A stretch of 20,281 bases of DNA from Nautiliaceae bacterium (GTDB taxonomy: Bacteria; Campylobacterota; Campylobacteria; Campylobacterales; Nautiliaceae), in NCBI GenBank assembly GCA_039831155.1, contig JBDONT010000034.1:1-20281 (forward strand), given 5' to 3'. The notes under the pieces were generated by a model. That model searched no databases and was not told the DNA's origin. It worked only from the letters and a program-made list of their open reading frames with translations. The translations under genes were made by a program, and so were the position numbers. This document shows positions 2,600 to 16,452 of this stretch, one piece after another (position 1 is the stretch's first letter; each line of letters begins with the position of its first letter).

Positions 2600-3728
2600 G
2601 GTGTTTTTTTAAGCTTAAAGCCGGAATAATTGATATCAATGTTAAAACGGCTGATAATTGGAATGTTGTATATAATCCGAATTTTTCTCCTAAAAATCCA
2701 GCTATTAAGATTAAAATGGAACTAACCCCGAAATTAAGTGCCATATAAATGCTATTTAAAAAAGTAGGGGCTTTTGTTTTGATATCTTGAACTGCTGCTA
2801 AAAGCACCGGAGATTGGGAAAAGAGAAAAAATCCAAGAGGAGCCAAAAGAATCCATAAGGCTGATTTGTAAAAATATAAAAATAAAACCAAACTTAAAAA
2901 CGCTCCTATTGAAGAGATAATAAGCATTTTTACCCTTCCGATTTTATCCGAAAACCTACCGGCAAAAAGAGCCCCTAAAATTCCGAACCCCTGAAGCACA
3001 CCAAAAGCTATACCGGCACTTTCCACACTGTAGCCGTTTTGAGTTAAAAATACCGGTAAAAACAGAGATAAAGAGACTTTTGAAGTGTAGTTTAATAAAA
3101 TAAAAGAGCTTAAAGATTTAAAAAAGGGAAACACTTCTTTTAAAATTTGTTTAACTTCGTCTTTTTCGAATTTTTTGGCGTAAAAGTTTGTTTTGTAATC
3201 TTTAAGTTTTATATAAAGAAAGATTGAAGTTAAAATTCCAAGAGGCGTTAATTTCCATATCCCCTCAAGTCCCCAAACAGAAATAACACCCGCGGCAAGT
3301 ATAGGACCTAATGTCCTGGCACTCTCTCCCGCCGCCATAAAATAGCTCATGCCTTTTCCGGCTTCTTTTTTTGAAAATTCTTTAATGATTGTAGGTGCCG
3401 GTATATGGAAAAGCGCGGCACTTATTCCTGCAATAAACAGTAAAAACAGAGCTATTATGTATGATGAGGTTATACTCAAAAGCCCCATGGAAACTGCCGT
3501 AATTGTAGGTGTAATTATTACAAACATTTTGGCGTCTCTTTTTTCGGCTATTATTCCTAAAAGAGGATTTAAAAGAGAGGGTATTTTTCGTGCAATATCA
3601 AGCATACCGGCTTGAGTTAAACTGATACCTAATTTTTGAATAAGTAAAGGTAAAATGGGTGCAAGAAGGGCTGAGAAAATATCGTGTGCGAAATGTGCGA
3701 ATGAAATTAAGTAAACTTTCTTTTTCAT
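2589..3728 (-). CDS. MFS transporter, Fsr (fosmidomycin-resistance)-like
   Basis: Highly hydrophobic, about 12 TM segments by eye. HFAHD N-terminal motif, ALFHIPA, GRFSDKIGR (MFS motif A repeat). Confidence 0.85.
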   Translation of the reverse strand: MKKKVYLISFAHFAHDIFSALLAPILPLLIQKLGISLTQAGMLDIARKIPSLLNPLLGIIAEKRDAKMFVIITPTITAVSMGLLSITSSYIIALFLLFIAGISAALFHIPAPTIIKEFSKKEAGKGMSYFMAAGESARTLGPILAAGVISVWGLEGIWKLTPLGILTSIFLYIKLKDYKTNFYAKKFEKDEVKQILKEVFPFFKSLSSFILLNYTSKVSLSLFLPVFLTQNGYSVESAGIAFGVLQGFGILGALFAGRFSDKIGRVKMLIISSIGAFLSLVLFLYFYKSALWILLAPLGFFLFSQSPVLLAAVQDIKTKAPTFLNSIYMALNFGVSSILILIAGFLGEKFGLYTTFQLSAVLTLISIIPALSLKKHLKI

Positions 3729-3791
3729 TTTTATCCTTGTTTTTTGTGGAATTTTACACTAAAATTTTCTCAAATCTATAAAAGGGCTGAT

Positions 3792-4976
3792 ATGAGAAAA
3801 CTTGACAGTTTAGGATTTGAAGAGAGTTTGGAACTGATTTTGGAAAAAATAGAACCGAAAAAAGAAACTAAGAAAATATTTATCTCTCAAGCTATAGGTA
3901 AAATTCTTGCACAAGATATAAAAGCAAAGAGAGATTTGCCTCTTTTTACAAATTCGGCAATGGACGGATATGCTTTTAAATATAATGAAAAGTGTAAAAA
4001 GTATAAAGTTGTTAAGACGATTTTTGCCGGGGATATTGTTGAGGGGAGTTTAAATGAGTGTGAGTGTTATAAGATAATGACCGGAGCTATGGTGCCAAAA
4101 GACGCCGATACGGTAGTGCCTTTTGAGAAGGTAAAAGAAGTCGGTGAATTTATAGAGTTTGAAGAAAAAAAAGGAGCGAACGTAAGGTTAAAAGGGGAAG
4201 AAGTTAAAAAAGGGGAAGTTCTTTTAGAAAAAGGAAGAAAACTCAATTTTGCAGATATTGCAATGCTTTCGTCTCAAGGTATCGTAAATGTTTCAGTGTA
4301 TAGGGATTTAAAAATAGGAGTGGTGGTAAGTGGAAACGAACTTAAAGAGCCGTGGGAAGAGGTCGGTGAATTTGAGCTTTTTAACGCAAACGGAATGGGA
4401 ATAGTCTCTTTACTTAAAGAAAAAGGATTTGAAGCTGATTATTTAGGAGTATTGCCGGATTCTTTGGAAGAGAGTATAAAGTTTTTTGAAAATATAAAAG
4501 GTTACGATGTTCTTATAACAAGCGGAGGAATTTCGCAAGGGGAGGCCGATTTTATATTGGACGCTTTAGAAGAAAACGGATTTGAAAAATATATTCACGG
4601 TATTTTGGTAAAACCCGGAAGAGCTACTTTGGTTGGAAAATTAAAAGATACTCTTATTTTAGGAATGCCCGGAAATCCTCTTAGTGCTTTAATTCAACTT
4701 CTTAGTTTGGGAATTCCTGTTTTAGAAAAATTAAGAGGAAATAAAAACTATAATTTTACTTTTATTGAAATCGAAAATAAAATTCCTTTTAAACTAAACT
4801 CCAAAAAAGACCACACTATCTTGGGCAGAGTGGAAAAAGACGGATTTTATGTTATAGATAATTATAAATACGGAAGTGGAATGTTAATGCCTTTTATAAA
4901 AGCAAACGCTTTTGCGATTGTTAAAAAAGGAAAATCCTTTATAGAAAGCGAAAAACTAAAAGTCGCTTTATTTTAG
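3792..4976 (+). CDS. moeA: Molybdopterin molybdotransferase
   Basis: SAMDGYA, IMTGAMVP, SGNEL, TSGGISQG, VKPGR, MPGNPLSA. Start moved to ATG 3792, which follows AAGGG. Confidence 0.95.
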   Translation: MRKLDSLGFEESLELILEKIEPKKETKKIFISQAIGKILAQDIKAKRDLPLFTNSAMDGYAFKYNEKCKKYKVVKTIFAGDIVEGSLNECECYKIMTGAMVPKDADTVVPFEKVKEVGEFIEFEEKKGANVRLKGEEVKKGEVLLEKGRKLNFADIAMLSSQGIVNVSVYRDLKIGVVVSGNELKEPWEEVGEFELFNANGMGIVSLLKEKGFEADYLGVLPDSLEESIKFFENIKGYDVLITSGGISQGEADFILDALEENGFEKYIHGILVKPGRATLVGKLKDTLILGMPGNPLSALIQLLSLGIPVLEKLRGNKNYNFTFIEIENKIPFKLNSKKDHTILGRVEKDGFYVIDNYKYGSGMLMPFIKANAFAIVKKGKSFIESEKLKVALF

Positions 4977-5240
4977 TTTTTCGTTCATTTTTATATATTC
5001 CGGTTTTGTTTCTATGCACTGCATTGCCGGGCTTGTTTTAGGGTCGTCTCTAAATACGACAACGCAATGCATTCTAGGGTATCCTTGAGTGTCAAACTCA
5101 TACACCCTAGGATTTGTACCGGTTGTTTCTATTGTATAGCTTATGGTGTTTATTGTTTTTTTAAAAGTTCCTATGAAGCTGTTCCAGTTAAACGCTAGAG
5201 AAAATGACGCAATTAGAGATATTGCAAGTAATTTTTTCAT
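4968..5240 (-). CDS. Small secreted hypothetical protein (90 aa, signal peptide, two Cys)
   Basis: Start MKKLLAISLIASFSLA (Sec signal peptide) preceded by AAGGA. Mature part contains RVYEF..MHCVVVF..MQC. Confidence 0.75.
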   Translation of the reverse strand: MKKLLAISLIASFSLAFNWNSFIGTFKKTINTISYTIETTGTNPRVYEFDTQGYPRMHCVVVFRDDPKTSPAMQCIETKPEYIKMNEKLK

Positions 5241-5248
5241 ACTAATCC

Positions 5249-5275
5249 TTTTTGTTATAATTATAAACAAAAAAA
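5249..5275. promoter_or_regulatory. Bidirectional promoter (overlapping -10 boxes)
   Basis: TTTTTGTTATAATTATAAACAAAAAAA: TATAAT on + (5256-5261) and on - (5265-5260), inside a 42-nt divergent gap. Confidence 0.65.
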
Positions 5276-5282
5276 GGCAAAA

Positions 5283-8033
5283 ATGGATATAAATAAACTT
5301 TTAAATTCAAAAAAACTGTTAACAGAAATCTACTTTGAGATTCAGAAATATTACGATAATCTATATCCCAATGCGGTTGTTTTAATGGAAGTGGGAAGTT
5401 TTTTTGAAACTTACGAGGCTGAAGGTATCGGAAAAGCCAGAGAAATAGCAAGCGTACTTAATATTCAGCTCACAAAAAAGAATAAGTCTATTCAAAAAGT
5501 AGATATAAAAAACCCTCTAATGGCCGGATTTCCTTCTCACGCACTTGATAGATACTTAGAAAAGCTCATAGACGAAAACAGATACACTATTATTCTAGTA
5601 AAACAAAAAGGAACCCCTCCTAACGTTACAAGATATATAAGTGAGATTATTTCCCCCGGAGTTAATCTTGAGTATTCCAAAACCACTGAAAATTACGTAA
5701 CATCTATAATTATAGAAAAATACTCTGCTTTTCACGTAGGGTTTGCGAATGTAGATATAACAACCGGTAAAAGTTTTGTATATGAAAACTACTCTACAAA
5801 AGACGATCCGACTTTCGCACTTGATGAACTTTTTAGACTGTTGCAGACTTATAAGTCGAGTGAAATTATTTTAACTTTAAAAAACGTAGATTGCGATGAG
5901 GTTGTAAACTATTTGGAACTTGAAGGTAAAAACATAATTATTAACCGTACCAGAATGGATGTTAATTATCAAAACGAAATTTTTAAAAGGGTTTACAATA
6001 TAAAAAGCCTTTTAACTCCTATTGAGGTTATGAATCTTGAGAGGTTTCCTTTAATTACGGAGGCTTTAGGGATTTTACTTGAGTTTGTCATAGCCCATAA
6101 TAAAGAACTTTTGAATAAATTAAAAGAGCCCGTTTTAATTGATGATGAAAAATTCGTTTATTTGGGAAATAATCCCATAAAACAGCTTGAGATTGACAAA
6201 GTTTTAAAATTAATCGATAAAACCAAAACTTCAATGGGAAAAAGACTTATAAAAGAGAGGCTTTATAATCCCATTCAAGATATTGACGAGCTTAATAAAA
6301 GATATAAATCTGTTGATTTTATGTTAAAAAGATACAAAGAGTTTGAGCCTCTTTTAAGAGATATTTACGATTTGGAAAAGATTGACAGAAAAATAAAACT
6401 AAAAAAACTTCACCCTTTTGAGATTAATTTTTTATTGACTTCTCTTGAATCTATTGCCGAAATTTATGTAAAACTTAAAAAAAGAACTTCAAAAATAGAG
6501 ATTTTTATAGAGTTTATTAAGAAAAATTTCGATTTAAACAAAATAAACGTAAAATTGGAAGATGTGAAAGAGTCGTTTTTTAAAGAGGGGATAGATAAAG
6601 AACTTGACGAGCTTATTAAAGAAAAAGAGAGATATTATAATCAACTTGTAAAAATACAAAAGAAGATAGAGTCTTTGGGAGATTTTAAGGTTGAAATAAA
6701 CAGACTTGAAAAAGAGGGGTTTTATTTTTCTTTGACAAAAAACAGATTTAAAATTATTAAAGATAAATTTCAAGAGAGTTTTGTGGATTTGGGGGATGAG
6801 AAGCTTTTTTTTGAAGATTTGAAAATCAAACAACTTACAAACAGCGTAAAAATTACTGGCGATAAGATAGACGAAATAGGAGATAAGATAATAGCTCTTC
6901 AAAATAAGATTATAAAACGTTCTTTAGAACTTTTTTTTGATAAATTGAAAGAAATGGAAGAGTTTGATATTTTGCACTCTTTAGCAGATGAAATTGCAAA
7001 AATAGACGTGGCGGTTAGCAGTGCTAAAGCGGCAAAAGAACTAAACTATACAAAGCCCGTTATTACTAATAAAAAGGCCTGTTTTAAAGATTTAAGACAC
7101 CCTTTAATAGAAGTAAATCAAGAAAACGGTATTTACGTTCCAAATGATATAGATTTTAACGAATATGACGGAATGCTTTTATACGGGATTAACTCTTCGG
7201 GAAAAAGTTCTCTTATGAAAAGTGTGGGAATTGCCGTATTTTTGGCTCAAAGTGGTTTTTTTGTACCGTGTAGTAAAATGGAGTTTACCCCTTATAACGC
7301 CGTTTTTACAAGAATTGAAGCAAAAGATAACCTCTCTAAGGGGCTTTCCACTTTTGCAGTTGAAATGCTTGAGCTTAAAAACATATTCAACAGAGCAGAT
7401 AAAAACTCATTGGTTTTAGGAGACGAAATAGCTCACGGGACGGAGACGACTTCGGCTTTGGCTATTGTAGCTAGTGCTGTTATAAAACTTGCAAGAAAAA
7501 AAATAAACTTTCTTTTTGCCACTCATTTACATCAGTTAATGGATATAGATGAGATTAAAGAGTTAAAAAATGTAGTGGCTAAACATTTGGAAGTCTATTT
7601 TGACGGAGAAAAATTGGTTTATGATAGAAAACTTAAAGATGGAAGCGGCAGCAGTGTATACGGGCTTGAGTTTGCCAAATCCATTTATATGGATAAAGAG
7701 TTTTTAAAGACGGCTGAAGAGATTAGAAAAAGACTCACTCAAGAATATAGTGAAATGGAACTGTTGCTTAAAAAGAAAAAGAGTCGTTACAATAAAAAGC
7801 TTTTGGTAACTACCTGTGCTATTTGTGGGAAAGTGGTTGAGGATGTTCATCACATAGTGGAAAAAGAAAAAGCAAAAGAGGGCTTTATAGACCACTATCC
7901 GGTCCATCACAAATATAATTTAATTCCTCTTTGTAAAAAACACCACAAAATGGTGCACGAAGGTAAAATTAGAATTACCGGCTTTGTGACCACTTCAAAA
8001 GGAATAGAACTACATTACGAAGAAGTTACGTAA
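5283..8033 (+). CDS. mutS: MutS-family ATPase with C-terminal HNH endonuclease (MutS7 type)
   Basis: Domain I LMEVGSFFETY (FxE) and MAGFP; LRHPLIE; Walker A GINSSGKSS; STFAVEM; Walker B LGDEIAHGT; FATHLH; C-terminal CAIC..EDVHHI..NLIPLCKKHHKMVH. Confidence 0.93.
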   Translation: MDINKLLNSKKLLTEIYFEIQKYYDNLYPNAVVLMEVGSFFETYEAEGIGKAREIASVLNIQLTKKNKSIQKVDIKNPLMAGFPSHALDRYLEKLIDENRYTIILVKQKGTPPNVTRYISEIISPGVNLEYSKTTENYVTSIIIEKYSAFHVGFANVDITTGKSFVYENYSTKDDPTFALDELFRLLQTYKSSEIILTLKNVDCDEVVNYLELEGKNIIINRTRMDVNYQNEIFKRVYNIKSLLTPIEVMNLERFPLITEALGILLEFVIAHNKELLNKLKEPVLIDDEKFVYLGNNPIKQLEIDKVLKLIDKTKTSMGKRLIKERLYNPIQDIDELNKRYKSVDFMLKRYKEFEPLLRDIYDLEKIDRKIKLKKLHPFEINFLLTSLESIAEIYVKLKKRTSKIEIFIEFIKKNFDLNKINVKLEDVKESFFKEGIDKELDELIKEKERYYNQLVKIQKKIESLGDFKVEINRLEKEGFYFSLTKNRFKIIKDKFQESFVDLGDEKLFFEDLKIKQLTNSVKITGDKIDEIGDKIIALQNKIIKRSLELFFDKLKEMEEFDILHSLADEIAKIDVAVSSAKAAKELNYTKPVITNKKACFKDLRHPLIEVNQENGIYVPNDIDFNEYDGMLLYGINSSGKSSLMKSVGIAVFLAQSGFFVPCSKMEFTPYNAVFTRIEAKDNLSKGLSTFAVEMLELKNIFNRADKNSLVLGDEIAHGTETTSALAIVASAVIKLARKKINFLFATHLHQLMDIDEIKELKNVVAKHLEVYFDGEKLVYDRKLKDGSGSSVYGLEFAKSIYMDKEFLKTAEEIRKRLTQEYSEMELLLKKKKSRYNKKLLVTTCAICGKVVEDVHHIVEKEKAKEGFIDHYPVHHKYNLIPLCKKHHKMVHEGKIRITGFVTTSKGIELHYEEVT

Positions 8034-14162: not shown

Positions 14163-15371
14163 ATGTTAGTAGTTCAGAAGTTCGGAGGAACAAGTGTCGG
14201 GGATTTGGATAGAATTCAAAATGTTGCCAATATCGTAAAAAAGTATAAAGAAAACGGAGACGATGTAGTTGTAGTCGTATCTGCTATGGCAGGGGAGACA
14301 AATAAATTGCTTGAATACGCAAACCATTTCTCTAAAACTCCTCCTCAAAGAGAGGTTGATTTACTTGTAAGTAGTGGAGAGAGGGTAACGAGTGCACTTC
14401 TTAGTATTGCACTTCAGGCTATGGGAATAGACGCTATAGCACTTACCGGAAGACAAGCCGGAATTAAAACTACAAGCGACCATACAAAAGCCAGAATTAT
14501 GGATATAGACCCGAATAAAATGCAAAAATACTTTAAAGACGGAAAAGTCGTAATAGTTGCAGGATTTCAAGGGATTAACGAAAACGGAGACGTTACTACT
14601 CTTGGTCGTGGAGGAAGCGATTTAACGGCAGTTGCTATTGCAGGGGCTTTAAATGCCGATAAGTGTGAAATTTATACGGATGTTGACGGGATTTATACAA
14701 CAGACCCGAGAATTGAACCAAAAGCTAAAAAGATTGATGTAATAAGCTATGATGAAATGCTGGAACTTGCAAGTCTTGGAGCAAAAGTAATGCAAAGCCG
14801 TTCAGTTGAGCTTGCAAAAAAATTAAACGTGGATATTGAAGTTAAATCAAGCTTTAAACCAGAAGTTAAAGGAACATTAATAACAAAGGAGACACCGGAT
14901 ATGGAAAAAGTACTTGTGAGTGGAATTGCACTTGATAAAAACCAGGCGAGAGTGAGTATTTTTGGGGTAGAAGATAGACCCGGAATCAGTGCCGAAATTT
15001 TCGGAAAGCTTGCAGATAAAAATATAAACGTTGATATGATTGTTCAAAACGTAGGTAAAGATTCAAAAGCAAACCTTACATTTACAGTACCTCAAACGGA
15101 ACTTGAACTTACAAAAGAGGTTTTAAAAGAGTATGAGAAAAATTCAGAAGCGATTGAGTATGACGATTCTATTGCAAAAGTGAGTGTTGTCGGAGTTGGT
15201 ATGAAATCTCATTCAGGTGTAGCTGCAACTGCATTTAAAACTCTGGCAGATGAAAATATTAACATATTGATGATTAGCACAAGTGAAATTAAAATTTCTA
15301 TGGTAATTGATGAGAAATATGGGGAGCTTGCCGTTAGAGCACTTCATAAAGCTTATCAATTGGATAAATAA
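14163..15371 (+). CDS. lysC: Aspartate kinase (alpha subunit)
   Basis: VQKFGGTSV, VVVSAM, TTLGRGGSD, YTDVDGIYTTDPR, two ACT domains, STSEIKIS. Confidence 0.97.
   Translation: MLVVQKFGGTSVGDLDRIQNVANIVKKYKENGDDVVVVVSAMAGETNKLLEYANHFSKTPPQREVDLLVSSGERVTSALLSIALQAMGIDAIALTGRQAGIKTTSDHTKARIMDIDPNKMQKYFKDGKVVIVAGFQGINENGDVTTLGRGGSDLTAVAIAGALNADKCEIYTDVDGIYTTDPRIEPKAKKIDVISYDEMLELASLGAKVMQSRSVELAKKLNVDIEVKSSFKPEVKGTLITKETPDMEKVLVSGIALDKNQARVSIFGVEDRPGISAEIFGKLADKNINVDMIVQNVGKDSKANLTFTVPQTELELTKEVLKEYEKNSEAIEYDDSIAKVSVVGVGMKSHSGVAATAFKTLADENINILMISTSEIKISMVIDEKYGELAVRALHKAYQLDK
14901..15371 (+). CDS. Probable nested in-frame aspartate kinase beta subunit (156 aa)
   Basis: AAGGAG at 14886-14891, 9 nt before in-frame ATG 14901 (Met247, MEKVLVSGIA), at the start of the ACT region. 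Confidence 0.6.
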   Translation: MEKVLVSGIALDKNQARVSIFGVEDRPGISAEIFGKLADKNINVDMIVQNVGKDSKANLTFTVPQTELELTKEVLKEYEKNSEAIEYDDSIAKVSVVGVGMKSHSGVAATAFKTLADENINILMISTSEIKISMVIDEKYGELAVRALHKAYQLDK

Positions 15372-15904
15372 TGGATATAAATCAGTTTACTTTAAAACTT
15401 ATAAGAGAAAAAAACATAAAATGGATGGAAGAAAAGAGGCTTGAATGGGTGCCTCTTGTTAGCGATTTCGTATTGAACGTAATTGAGGGTAAGAGCGTTT
15501 TAATGATTAGCGATTATAAAAGAGAGTGGTTTTGTGATTATATGATTAACAAAATTAATAATTTTCAGGATTTCAAACCCTCTTTTATTCCTATTTTTCA
15601 TTTGCAAAAGATAGTCCCTCAAATTCTGAATGCCCGTACAAACGAACATTTTGAGATGATTGAGGATATGTTGAGTATAAGTTTTAGCGATAATTATATC
15701 TATTGGTATGTGGGAGTGGAAACTCCTATGTTGAAACTTGCAAGAAACAAGCCCGATTCTTTTTTTTGGATTATGGATATGGATTTGCATAAAAATTTCT
15801 TCTTAAAGTCTCTTGATGAAAATCTGGATAAAAAACTTTTGGATTTGGCAAATATCTTAAACGAAACTTTAAAAGCCGCTATTTTTGCAGAGGTGGAGAT
15901 TTGA
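15371..15904 (+). CDS. hobA: HobA-family DnaA-binding replication regulator
   Basis: WMEEKRLEWVPL, REWFCDY, IEDMLSISF, YWYVG. Sits between lysC and holB as in Campylobacterota. Confidence 0.88.
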   Translation: MDINQFTLKLIREKNIKWMEEKRLEWVPLVSDFVLNVIEGKSVLMISDYKREWFCDYMINKINNFQDFKPSFIPIFHLQKIVPQILNARTNEHFEMIEDMLSISFSDNYIYWYVGVETPMLKLARNKPDSFFWIMDMDLHKNFFLKSLDENLDKKLLDLANILNETLKAAIFAEVEI

Positions 15905-16452
15905 GTAAGATTATTATTACCGATGATTTTGAAGAGGTTATTAAAGAGTTAAAACCGGATGAAAAGATAGTCGTAGAAGAGTTAAAAGTTGAAGATGTCC
16001 AAAAGATAAGAGAACTTGCCTATATAGCCCAAAAAGAAAAAAAGATTATTTTAATAGCCGCTGAAAAATACAACTTAATTTCTCAAAACGCTTTATTAAA
16101 GCTTTTGGAAGAACCTCCTAAAAATATAGACTTTGTTTTGCTTGCAAAGTCAAAATATTCTTTGCTGGATACTATAAAATCCCGTCTTCCTATAGAAAAA
16201 AGAATTTTTTACTCTTCTTTAGGTATTGATATTGATATTTCAAAAATTACAAATGAGTTTATTTTGGAGCTTTTAAAAAAAGATTTGGAATTAAAAGAGT
16301 TAAAAGCTTTAATTTATAAAATTGTAAAAGAAAAGGAGCTATCGGCCGGTCAAATGGAAATTTTAAGCGACGCTATAAAAATGCTTGAACTGAACATAGA
16401 CAAAAAGGCTGTTTTGTCATTGATTATGCTTAGTCTTAAGGATAGAAAATGA
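15901..16452 (+). CDS. holB: DNA polymerase III delta' subunit (short Campylobacterota form)
   Basis: SQNALLKLLEEPP and LLDTIKSRL clamp-loader motifs. TTG start overlaps the hobA stop. Confidence 0.88.
   Translation: MSKIIITDDFEEVIKELKPDEKIVVEELKVEDVQKIRELAYIAQKEKKIILIAAEKYNLISQNALLKLLEEPPKNIDFVLLAKSKYSLLDTIKSRLPIEKRIFYSSLGIDIDISKITNEFILELLKKDLELKELKALIYKIVKEKELSAGQMEILSDAIKMLELNIDKKAVLSLIMLSLKDRK

Follow-up and report, generated by a model that had tools for sequence, protein, structure and literature searches.

MutS proteins of the MutS7 subfamily combine domains I, III and V of the MutS fold with a C-terminal HNH domain. As described in the passages on this subfamily by Bilewitch & Degnan (2011, PMC3166940), they occur in epsilonproteobacteria, nucleocytoplasmic large DNA viruses and octocoral mitochondria, and a self-contained form of mismatch repair has already been proposed for them. 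According to the same passages, domains II and IV go undetected in MutS7 sequences, in contrast with MutS1. The relevant section of a 2018 review (PMC6163669) places such homologues throughout the epsilon division and regards this division as the likely source of the viral gene, and parts of two preprints repeat the same distribution. Here, a gene of this type is described from a Nautiliaceae bacterium (assembly GCA_039831155.1): mutS7, at positions 5283-8033 (+) of contig JBDONT010000034.1, a stretch of 20,281 nucleotides (nt) that was analysed as a whole and is called the window below. The family is already known, having been described since about 2007-2011, and this gene is an ordinary member of it. 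The exact protein sequence is already present in the ESM Atlas, and a 97%-identical protein is found in public collections. A further MutS7 reference, cited by Bilewitch & Degnan, is reportedly Ogata et al. 2011.

The gene (protein P0001) consists of a single uninterrupted open reading frame (ORF) with its ATG at 5283 and its stop codon at 8031-8033, encoding 916 amino acids (aa), and relatives from the same family measure 912-919 aa. Three MutS domains are recognized by Pfam, each above its cut-off: the mismatch-binding domain I at residues 26-127 (nt 5358-5663; PF01624, E 2e-13), domain III with the core and levers at residues 306-581 (nt 6198-7025; PF05192, E 3e-21) and the domain V ATPase at residues 632-818 (nt 7176-7736; PF00488, E 4e-44). 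In a phmmer comparison, one contiguous alignment connects residues 28-815 to residues 24-793 of Escherichia coli MutS. It places G38-S-F40-F-E42 opposite the G-D-F-Y-E mismatch-binding motif, so that the Phe-x-Glu mismatch-contact motif F40-F41-E42 (nt 5400-5408) is aligned to F-Y-E of E. coli. Within domain V, the Walker A string GINSSGKSS (635-643; G635-S642 at nt 7185-7208) stands opposite GPNMGGKST, and LVLGDEIAHGT, which holds the Walker B residues D714-E715 (nt 7422-7427), opposite LVLMDEIGRGT. The C-terminal domain at residues 834-916 (nt 7782-8030) is supported by alignments, by an AlphaFold2 (AF2) domain model and by its structural neighbours in VIA-align. It carries a zinc-type HNH motif composed of C845-A-I-C848, V855-H856-H857, N879, C884-K-K-H887-H888 and H892. 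The initial annotation, made from the DNA letters alone, had reported an FxE motif, a complete ATPase and an HNH domain at about 7815-7960 with CxxC, VHH, N and CxxHH residues; all of these are present, with the HNH motif spanning nt 7815-7958.

Domains II and IV are less apparent from the sequence. The connector (domain II-like) region at residues 137-280 (nt 5691-6122) gives a weak Pfam MutS_II match (E 0.0032) whose 18.3 bits fall short of the cut-off of 25, and no Pfam MutS_IV match was obtained in the protein, in line with the published sequence-level description of MutS7. However, a full-length AF2 model, made from an alignment of 75 sequences (predicted local distance difference test score, pLDDT, 89.7; predicted template modelling score 0.81), shows alpha/beta elements in the connector region and a beta-rich, clamp-like insert within domain III at about residues 466-530 (nt 6678-6872; DSSP strands at 471-525). 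The top Foldseek matches of this model in the PDB are E. coli MutS chains (E ~1e-49, target-normalised template modelling (TM) scores of 0.79-0.83, ~850 aligned columns, 21-22% identity), followed by Taq MutS and human MSH2/3/6. Because the superposition takes in nearly the entire E. coli MutS structure, domains II and IV seem diverged rather than missing, and all five domains of the MutS body appear to be there.

Residue conservation was assessed in an alignment of 75 bacterial, viral and metagenome relatives that are 32-84% identical to the query. All 75 sequences share C845, C848, H856, H857, N879, C884 and H888 of the HNH motif, N637 and K641 of Walker A, D714 and E715 of Walker B, and H748; F40, E42 and H892 are shared by 90% or more. 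The same HNH residues are invariant in a tail-only alignment of 43 sequences. Since these residues do not vary among distant relatives, the motif is not a chance pattern.

A shorter, MutS7-derived paralogue of 678 aa was encountered in a single genus (code g41; three genomes), at L128:1225-3258 (+), L129:1258-3291 (+) and G231:C9 ~101193-103016, the G231 copy being interrupted by an in-frame TAA. It matches residues ~135-913 only and so is without domain I, and its HNH domain is degenerate, the HH pair after the CxxC being gone. Probably the same paralogue makes up an ESM Atlas cluster of 78 Campylobacterota sequences, ~674 aa long, that are labelled ‘MutS-related protein’. As the paralogue loses the HH pair while the full-length proteins keep it, the residues appear to be retained because they are used.

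Next to the domain order, the family assignment relies on profile scores and phylogeny. Both NCBIfam equivalog models for MutS1 score below their cut-offs (NF003810, 407 against 480 bits; TIGR01070, 324 against 641.7 bits), and the score for the NCBIfam MutS2 model is far below its cut-off. For the trees, seven MutS1 sequences (E. coli K-12 and six taxonomically spread plasmid-collection records) and five MutS2 sequences from Campylobacterota served as references. The HNH tail was removed before tree building, so it could not drive the grouping. In a 72-row tree (LG+G4, quick search), the seven MutS1 and the five MutS2 rows each form one clade, with support values of 100 in the Shimodaira-Hasegawa-like approximate likelihood ratio test (SH-aLRT), and the window protein falls inside a 60-row clade with a support of 99. 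The latter clade further contains 26 proteins from IMG/VR viral contigs, 15 metagenome cluster representatives, 16 other Campylobacterota proteins and two of the 678-aa paralogues. A 44-row subset, which leaves out the two paralogues and 26 other rows, gave the same split under LG+C20+F+G4, the supports being 99 (MutS1) and 98 (MutS7-like clade). MutS2 is the most distant group in the trees. The initial annotation had proposed the MutS7 architecture and named clustering with MutS1 or MutS2 as the outcome that would speak against it; the protein groups with neither. Domain I with FxE, domains III and V with an intact ATPase, a C-terminal HNH domain and a clade apart from MutS1 and MutS2 are thus all found in one protein, which has no Smr domain and, having a domain I, does not qualify as MutS2. 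It almost certainly belongs to the MutS7 subfamily.

Relatives of the protein are abundant in viral contigs, where 578 of 597 candidate stretches encode one. Contigs of giant-virus metagenome-assembled genomes (GVMAG) supply the bulk of the 80 viral loci kept; identities are 30-41%, and the majority of the matches span residues ~12-915. A pattern scan of the longest frame per kept locus found G-x-F-x-E, Walker A and CxxC...HH in nearly all. In the ESM Atlas, the clusters closest to the protein carry the labels Campylobacterota and Nucleocytoviricota. Among the individual relatives, the protein on L038 (an IMG/VR contig of 54.6 kb; match at 3001-5877, 41% identity) is placed among metagenome representatives in the bacterial part of the tree, apart from the giant-virus clades, and this contig may not be a giant virus. 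Ten representative clusters of distant relatives were checked for names, and two of these had a named member, the sole organism name being a ‘Candidatus Magasanikbacteria’ metagenome-assembled genome. It labels the only named member of P0122 / P0271 (a cluster of 5), which nests within the Campylobacterota clade; this placement suggests a mis-binned contig or a transfer. Five other distant relatives, P0125 (1411 aa), P0146 (1318 aa), P0201, P0254 and P0262, have 100-500 additional aa, and their matches are broken into two or three stretches, as would be seen if a large insert interrupted the protein. Inteins in nucleocytovirus MutS genes are noted in part of one preprint.

Compared with the described systems, the window protein has the I-III-V-HNH order, the FxE and Walker motifs and the HH...N...H pattern in common with viral, octocoral and epsilonproteobacterial MutS7, a likeness of features for which the direct comparison covered unnamed giant-virus contigs, with no named virus and no coral among them. 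With the proteins of giant-virus contigs, it shares 30-41% identity over residues ~12-915 and a common clade in the tail-less trees. Unlike in the viral rows shown, where the fourth zinc-ligand position is a Cys (C-x-x-C-H), this position is a His (C-K-K-H887-H888) here and in the Campylobacterota rows shown. The bacterial proteins also differ from viral and mitochondrial MutS7 in being chromosomal and in looking vertically inherited. MutS1 (E. coli MutS, PDB 1e3m and 7ai6) has the same whole-body fold, with a TM score of ~0.8 on the target, and the same mismatch and ATPase motifs; it is set apart by a structural-alignment identity of 21-22%, by the separate clade and by equivalog cut-offs that the window protein does not reach. 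In addition, the HNH domain occupies the place of the C-terminal tetramerisation region of E. coli MutS, and the genome yielded no MutL partner. MutS2 likewise joins a MutS-family ATPase to a C-terminal nuclease, but the Smr nuclease fold is unrelated to HNH and the resident MutS2 is without domain I. Plant-type MSH1, a MutS with a C-terminal GIY-YIG domain, is an independent sensor-nuclease fusion that is scattered over eukaryotes, a few bacteria and giant viruses. Since both its nuclease family and its MutS lineage differ, the resemblance is one of convergence and not kinship, as stated in parts of the MSH1 and preprint papers.

The distribution was determined in a sample of 301 Campylobacterota genomes spanning 14 family codes, the counts excluding the genome of the window organism. 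With the mutS7 protein as query, 81 genomes were matched at E ≤ 1e-10. Nine of them have weak, domain-V-only matches in MutS2-type frames of 502-753 aa, and 72/301 have a strong MutS7-like match, which extends to residue 911 or beyond in all but one (71/72). The exception, G030, has a match ending at residue 819 in a fragmented assembly. No MutS1-like full-length match was obtained in the 301 genomes with this query. MutS7 is present in all or most of the sampled genomes of nine family codes: f1 (Nautiliaceae, 7/7), f4 (7/12), f6 (13/15), f7 (23/23), f8 (6/6), f10 (1/1), f11 (9/11), f12 (4/4) and f14 (1/1). Strong matches are absent from the two largest codes in the sample, f2 (0/90) and f3 (0/124), as well as from f5 (0/3), f9 (0/2) and f13 (0/1). 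The initial annotation had spoken of ‘some Campylobacterota’, rightly as to presence, while understating the extent. In the gene tree, the five Nautiliaceae rows form one clade at 100, and the rows of f4, f7, f8 and f11 are mixed or split. The gene itself is flanked by housekeeping genes, with MoeA upstream and KdsB convergent downstream. Together with these flanks, the separation of the Nautiliaceae rows fits vertical descent. At a rough probability of 75%, mutS7 is considered to be a vertically inherited, intact MutS7 member whose sequence predicts a mismatch-recognition ATPase with a C-terminal, zinc-stabilised HNH nuclease.

The repair genes of the same organism were searched in its genome of 1.53 Mb (43 contigs, 96.7% complete, 32% G+C), of which the window is the whole of contig 21. 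Profile searches of this genome gave no MutL_C, no MutH and no NucS, and the full MutL model TIGR00585 produced just local matches of 27 and 20 bits against a cut-off of 180. MutS_I is found in mutS7 only, which leaves no detectable MutS1. A second MutS_V gene on contig 20, a 722-aa frame without domain I, carries the only Smr domain in the genome and is therefore a MutS2. Three UvrD-family genes over the cut-off and one RecJ gene are also present. The independence from MutL and MutH that the initial annotation envisaged thus agrees with a genome in which no MutL and a single MutS2 with Smr were found.

MutS proteins dimerise through domain V, and MutS7 would do so in the same manner as MutS1. 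One subunit would then read the mismatch with F40 and E42, after which ATP binding would turn the dimer into a clamp state. Instead of recruiting MutL (and MutH), the protein would use its own HNH domain to cut the DNA near the mismatch. Going by the pattern common to zinc-type HNH enzymes, H857 would presumably serve as general base, the catalytic metal site would consist of N879 and H888 together with H892, and C845, C848, C884 and H887 would hold a structural zinc. The strand would be removed by the resident UvrD-type helicases and RecJ and filled in by polymerase and ligase. The balance of the sequence data tips towards such a mismatch-activated nuclease, which would replace MutS1-MutL. 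Self-contained mismatch recognition and nicking, as initially annotated, thus stands as far as the domains and residues are concerned, with a nicking mechanism that is predicted from them both here and in the literature.

Several points weigh against this reading. The tree supports are SH-aLRT values from quick searches, and the trees contain no named Mimivirus, octocoral or MutS3-6/8 sequences, the viral side being made up of unnamed IMG/VR giant-virus contigs. The tie to the published MutS7 clade therefore runs via these contigs, the taxon labels of the Atlas and a 51% identity to a protein of Nitratiruptor sp. SB155-2, reportedly one of the founding bacterial MutS7 members. For the C-terminal domain, the Pfam matches HNH_2 (residues 845-896, E 0.0051) and DUF968 (E 6e-4) are below the cut-off. 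Its isolated AF2 model (pLDDT 84.6) has short strands and a helix as in a beta-beta-alpha-metal finger, yet Foldseek returned no PDB match at E ≤ 0.001, the best sub-threshold rows being IscB, TagI, McrA and the Gme HNH enzyme (E 0.2-0.6). In an exhaustive VIA-align comparison of the same model, the first seven rows are IscB, VcaM4I, a second IscB, Cap5, the HNH protein of phage GVE2, TagI and McrA, all of them HNH nucleases, with Z scores of 5.6-4.2 that fall in the range (4-6) the tool itself calls common. With Z scores this modest, the fold match backs the conserved motif and is no proof by itself. A full-text literature search, with most subscription journals outside its coverage, found no published enzymatic activity for any MutS7. 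Finally, as the genome is 96.7% complete, the absence of MutL means that it was not found in the assembly; a missed MutL gene is unlikely, since MutL_C was found in 0/301 genomes across the phylum.

How the DNA would be cut is the part with the closest competitor. The HNH domains of the dimer might cut both strands at or near the mismatch, and the break would be repaired from the sister chromosome by homologous recombination, so that no strand discrimination would be needed. A mismatch-break-recombination model of this kind has been proposed for plant organellar MSH1, which bears a GIY-YIG nuclease, and the relevant part of the MSH1 paper parallels the MSH1 architecture with that of MutS7. A dimer would hold two HNH domains, and no strand-discrimination partner was found, neither MutH nor MutL, in the organism's own genome. 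On the other hand, the structural matches include nicking HNH enzymes such as the Gme HNH nicking endonuclease (4h9d), and the nick-processing UvrD and RecJ are present, though both serve other pathways too. Weighing these, the double-strand cut is judged unlikely as the actual mode of action, and the single-strand nick is only slightly favoured over it. Less probable still is a main role in anti-recombination, in which MutS7 would destroy mismatched heteroduplex arising from the uptake of diverged DNA rather than repair replication errors. The mismatch-reading residues are kept, and nuclease-fused MutS proteins do act in this manner, MutS2 with Smr being described in part of PMC3200294 as suppressing recombination; but the genome already holds a MutS2-Smr gene for that role, and the retention of MutS7 by giant viruses and octocoral mitochondria is a better fit to fidelity maintenance. 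An anti-recombination role would in any case be compatible with repair.

The two remaining explanations concern the nature of the protein itself. It might be a diverged MutS1 in which a structural C-terminal zinc finger without nuclease activity was added, serving for example in oligomerisation instead of the E. coli tetramerisation domain. Among solved structures, MutS1 does give the best match in both sequence and fold, and the Pfam HNH match is under its cut-off. Yet neither MutS1 equivalog cut-off is reached, the protein is split from the seven MutS1 references at supports of 98-99, and the invariance in 75 sequences goes beyond the Cys ligands to H856, H857, N879 and H888. The 678-aa paralogue, with its lost HH pair, shows that such positions decay when unconstrained. 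This makes a finger without nuclease function very improbable. Even harder to sustain is a defence or mobile-element nuclease, an ATPase with an HNH domain that would sense foreign DNA and be tied to the McrC/JetD-like/MazF cluster. Such a cluster does lie in the window (a McrBC-component fragment, a JetD_C-like protein and a MazF toxin at nt 2-1763), and many of the HNH structural matches are restriction or defence enzymes. However, three unrelated genes, for a methyltransferase, an MFS (major facilitator superfamily) transporter and MoeA, lie between it and mutS7, and a PADLOC scan of the mutS7 protein matched 0 families. The GC content across the gene (0.27-0.35 at 1-kb resolution) stays inside the range of the window without anomaly, and MutS7 occurs in all or most sampled genomes of nine family codes. 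Although the tree separates the family codes only partly, nothing indicates recent mobility.

Returning to the mismatch-activated nuclease, a bolder version can be formulated, which is put forward tentatively and is rather more doubtful. In this version, MutS7 of free-living Campylobacterota would be the sole post-replicative mismatch correction of a phylum in whose 301 sampled genomes no MutL was found, with the MutS clamp activating its own HNH domain in cis, possibly via a recombination-repaired break. If this is true, the cis activation of HNH by a MutS clamp would be a chemistry not yet demonstrated for any organism, and the absence of MutS7 from f2 and f3 would explain the missing mismatch repair there. 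In the fields of giant viruses and octocoral mitochondria, MutS7 is textbook-level knowledge, with its activity only inferred from domains in the papers searched. With a confident AF2 model and fully conserved catalytic residues, the compact protein of this organism, probably a moderate thermophile, lends itself reasonably well to direct testing. Such a test would ask whether mismatch recognition and strand cutting reside in one polypeptide, and whether and how the strand is chosen in a system with neither MutL nor MutH nor a known clamp-binding partner. For annotation purposes, the gene is better labelled MutS7 (MutS-HNH) than ‘DNA mismatch repair protein MutS’, and its presence is no sign of a canonical MutSL pathway.

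A moderately thermophilic lifestyle of the window organism is plausible. Among named proteins, the MutS7 sequence is closest to that of Nautilia sp. (84% identity), followed by those of Caminibacter and Lebetimonas at 77-78% and of Nitratiruptor and Nitrosophilus at ~51%, which places the genome with the vent Campylobacterota of the Nautiliaceae type. The fraction of Ile, Val, Tyr, Trp, Arg, Glu and Leu (IVYWREL) over 987 long ORFs is 0.413, which converts to a crude estimate of ~52 °C. The ‘probable thermophile’ of the initial annotation is plausible because of the Nautilia, Caminibacter and Lebetimonas relatives and this composition estimate. For reverse gyrase, a marker of thermophily, no match over the cut-off was obtained in the 96.7%-complete assembly, the best being a 733-aa frame on model positions 702-1169, the topoisomerase part. 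As reported in parts of the N. profundicola paper, rgy is found in N. profundicola, Caminibacter and Nitratiruptor, and 65 °C lies more than 20 °C above the optimum of N. profundicola. This implies a moderately thermophilic range, to which the estimate of ~52 °C is near.

Upstream of mutS7, AAGG is located 6 nt before the ATG, and a promoter-like site at 5234-5261 (+) reads TTTTCA, a 16-nt spacer and TG-n-TATAAT. This site is a consensus match only, and promoter-like sites in the region are not above the shuffled count (10 against 11.8 in shuffles). Divergent from mutS7, a 100-aa ORF without a Pfam match lies at 4968-5270 (-); an internal start at ~5240 would give the signal-peptide-like sequence MKKLLAISLIASFSLA. 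At the other end, the 3’ ends of mutS7 (+) and the kdsB-like cytidylyltransferase gene (-) overlap by 19 nt (8015-8033). To look for conserved partner genes, five genes neighbouring mutS7 in the window were compared by tblastn with 29 Campylobacterota loci, each taken with flanks of 1.5 kb. Recurrence is limited to the 100-aa ORF and the MFS gene, and to the seven same-family loci; the 100-aa ORF adjoins mutS7 in 7/7 of these (65-93% identity) and in 0/22 other loci. MoeA, KdsB and the methyltransferase had no match within the flanks of the 29 loci.

Further away, the small defence/toxin cluster at the contig start (2-1763, +) consists of a McrBC-system component (PF10117, E 1e-23) truncated to its C-terminal part by the contig end, the JetD_C-like protein at 414-1157 (+; E 9e-9) and a MazF/PemK toxin at 1422-1763 (+; E 1e-25). 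The gap between the latter two (1158-1421) could hold a short antitoxin gene. On the opposite side of mutS7, a replication-initiation pair is found at 15371-16452 (+), in which HobA (PF12163, E 8e-53), to our knowledge specific to the phylum Campylobacterota, is directly followed by a DNA polymerase III delta-prime-like gene.

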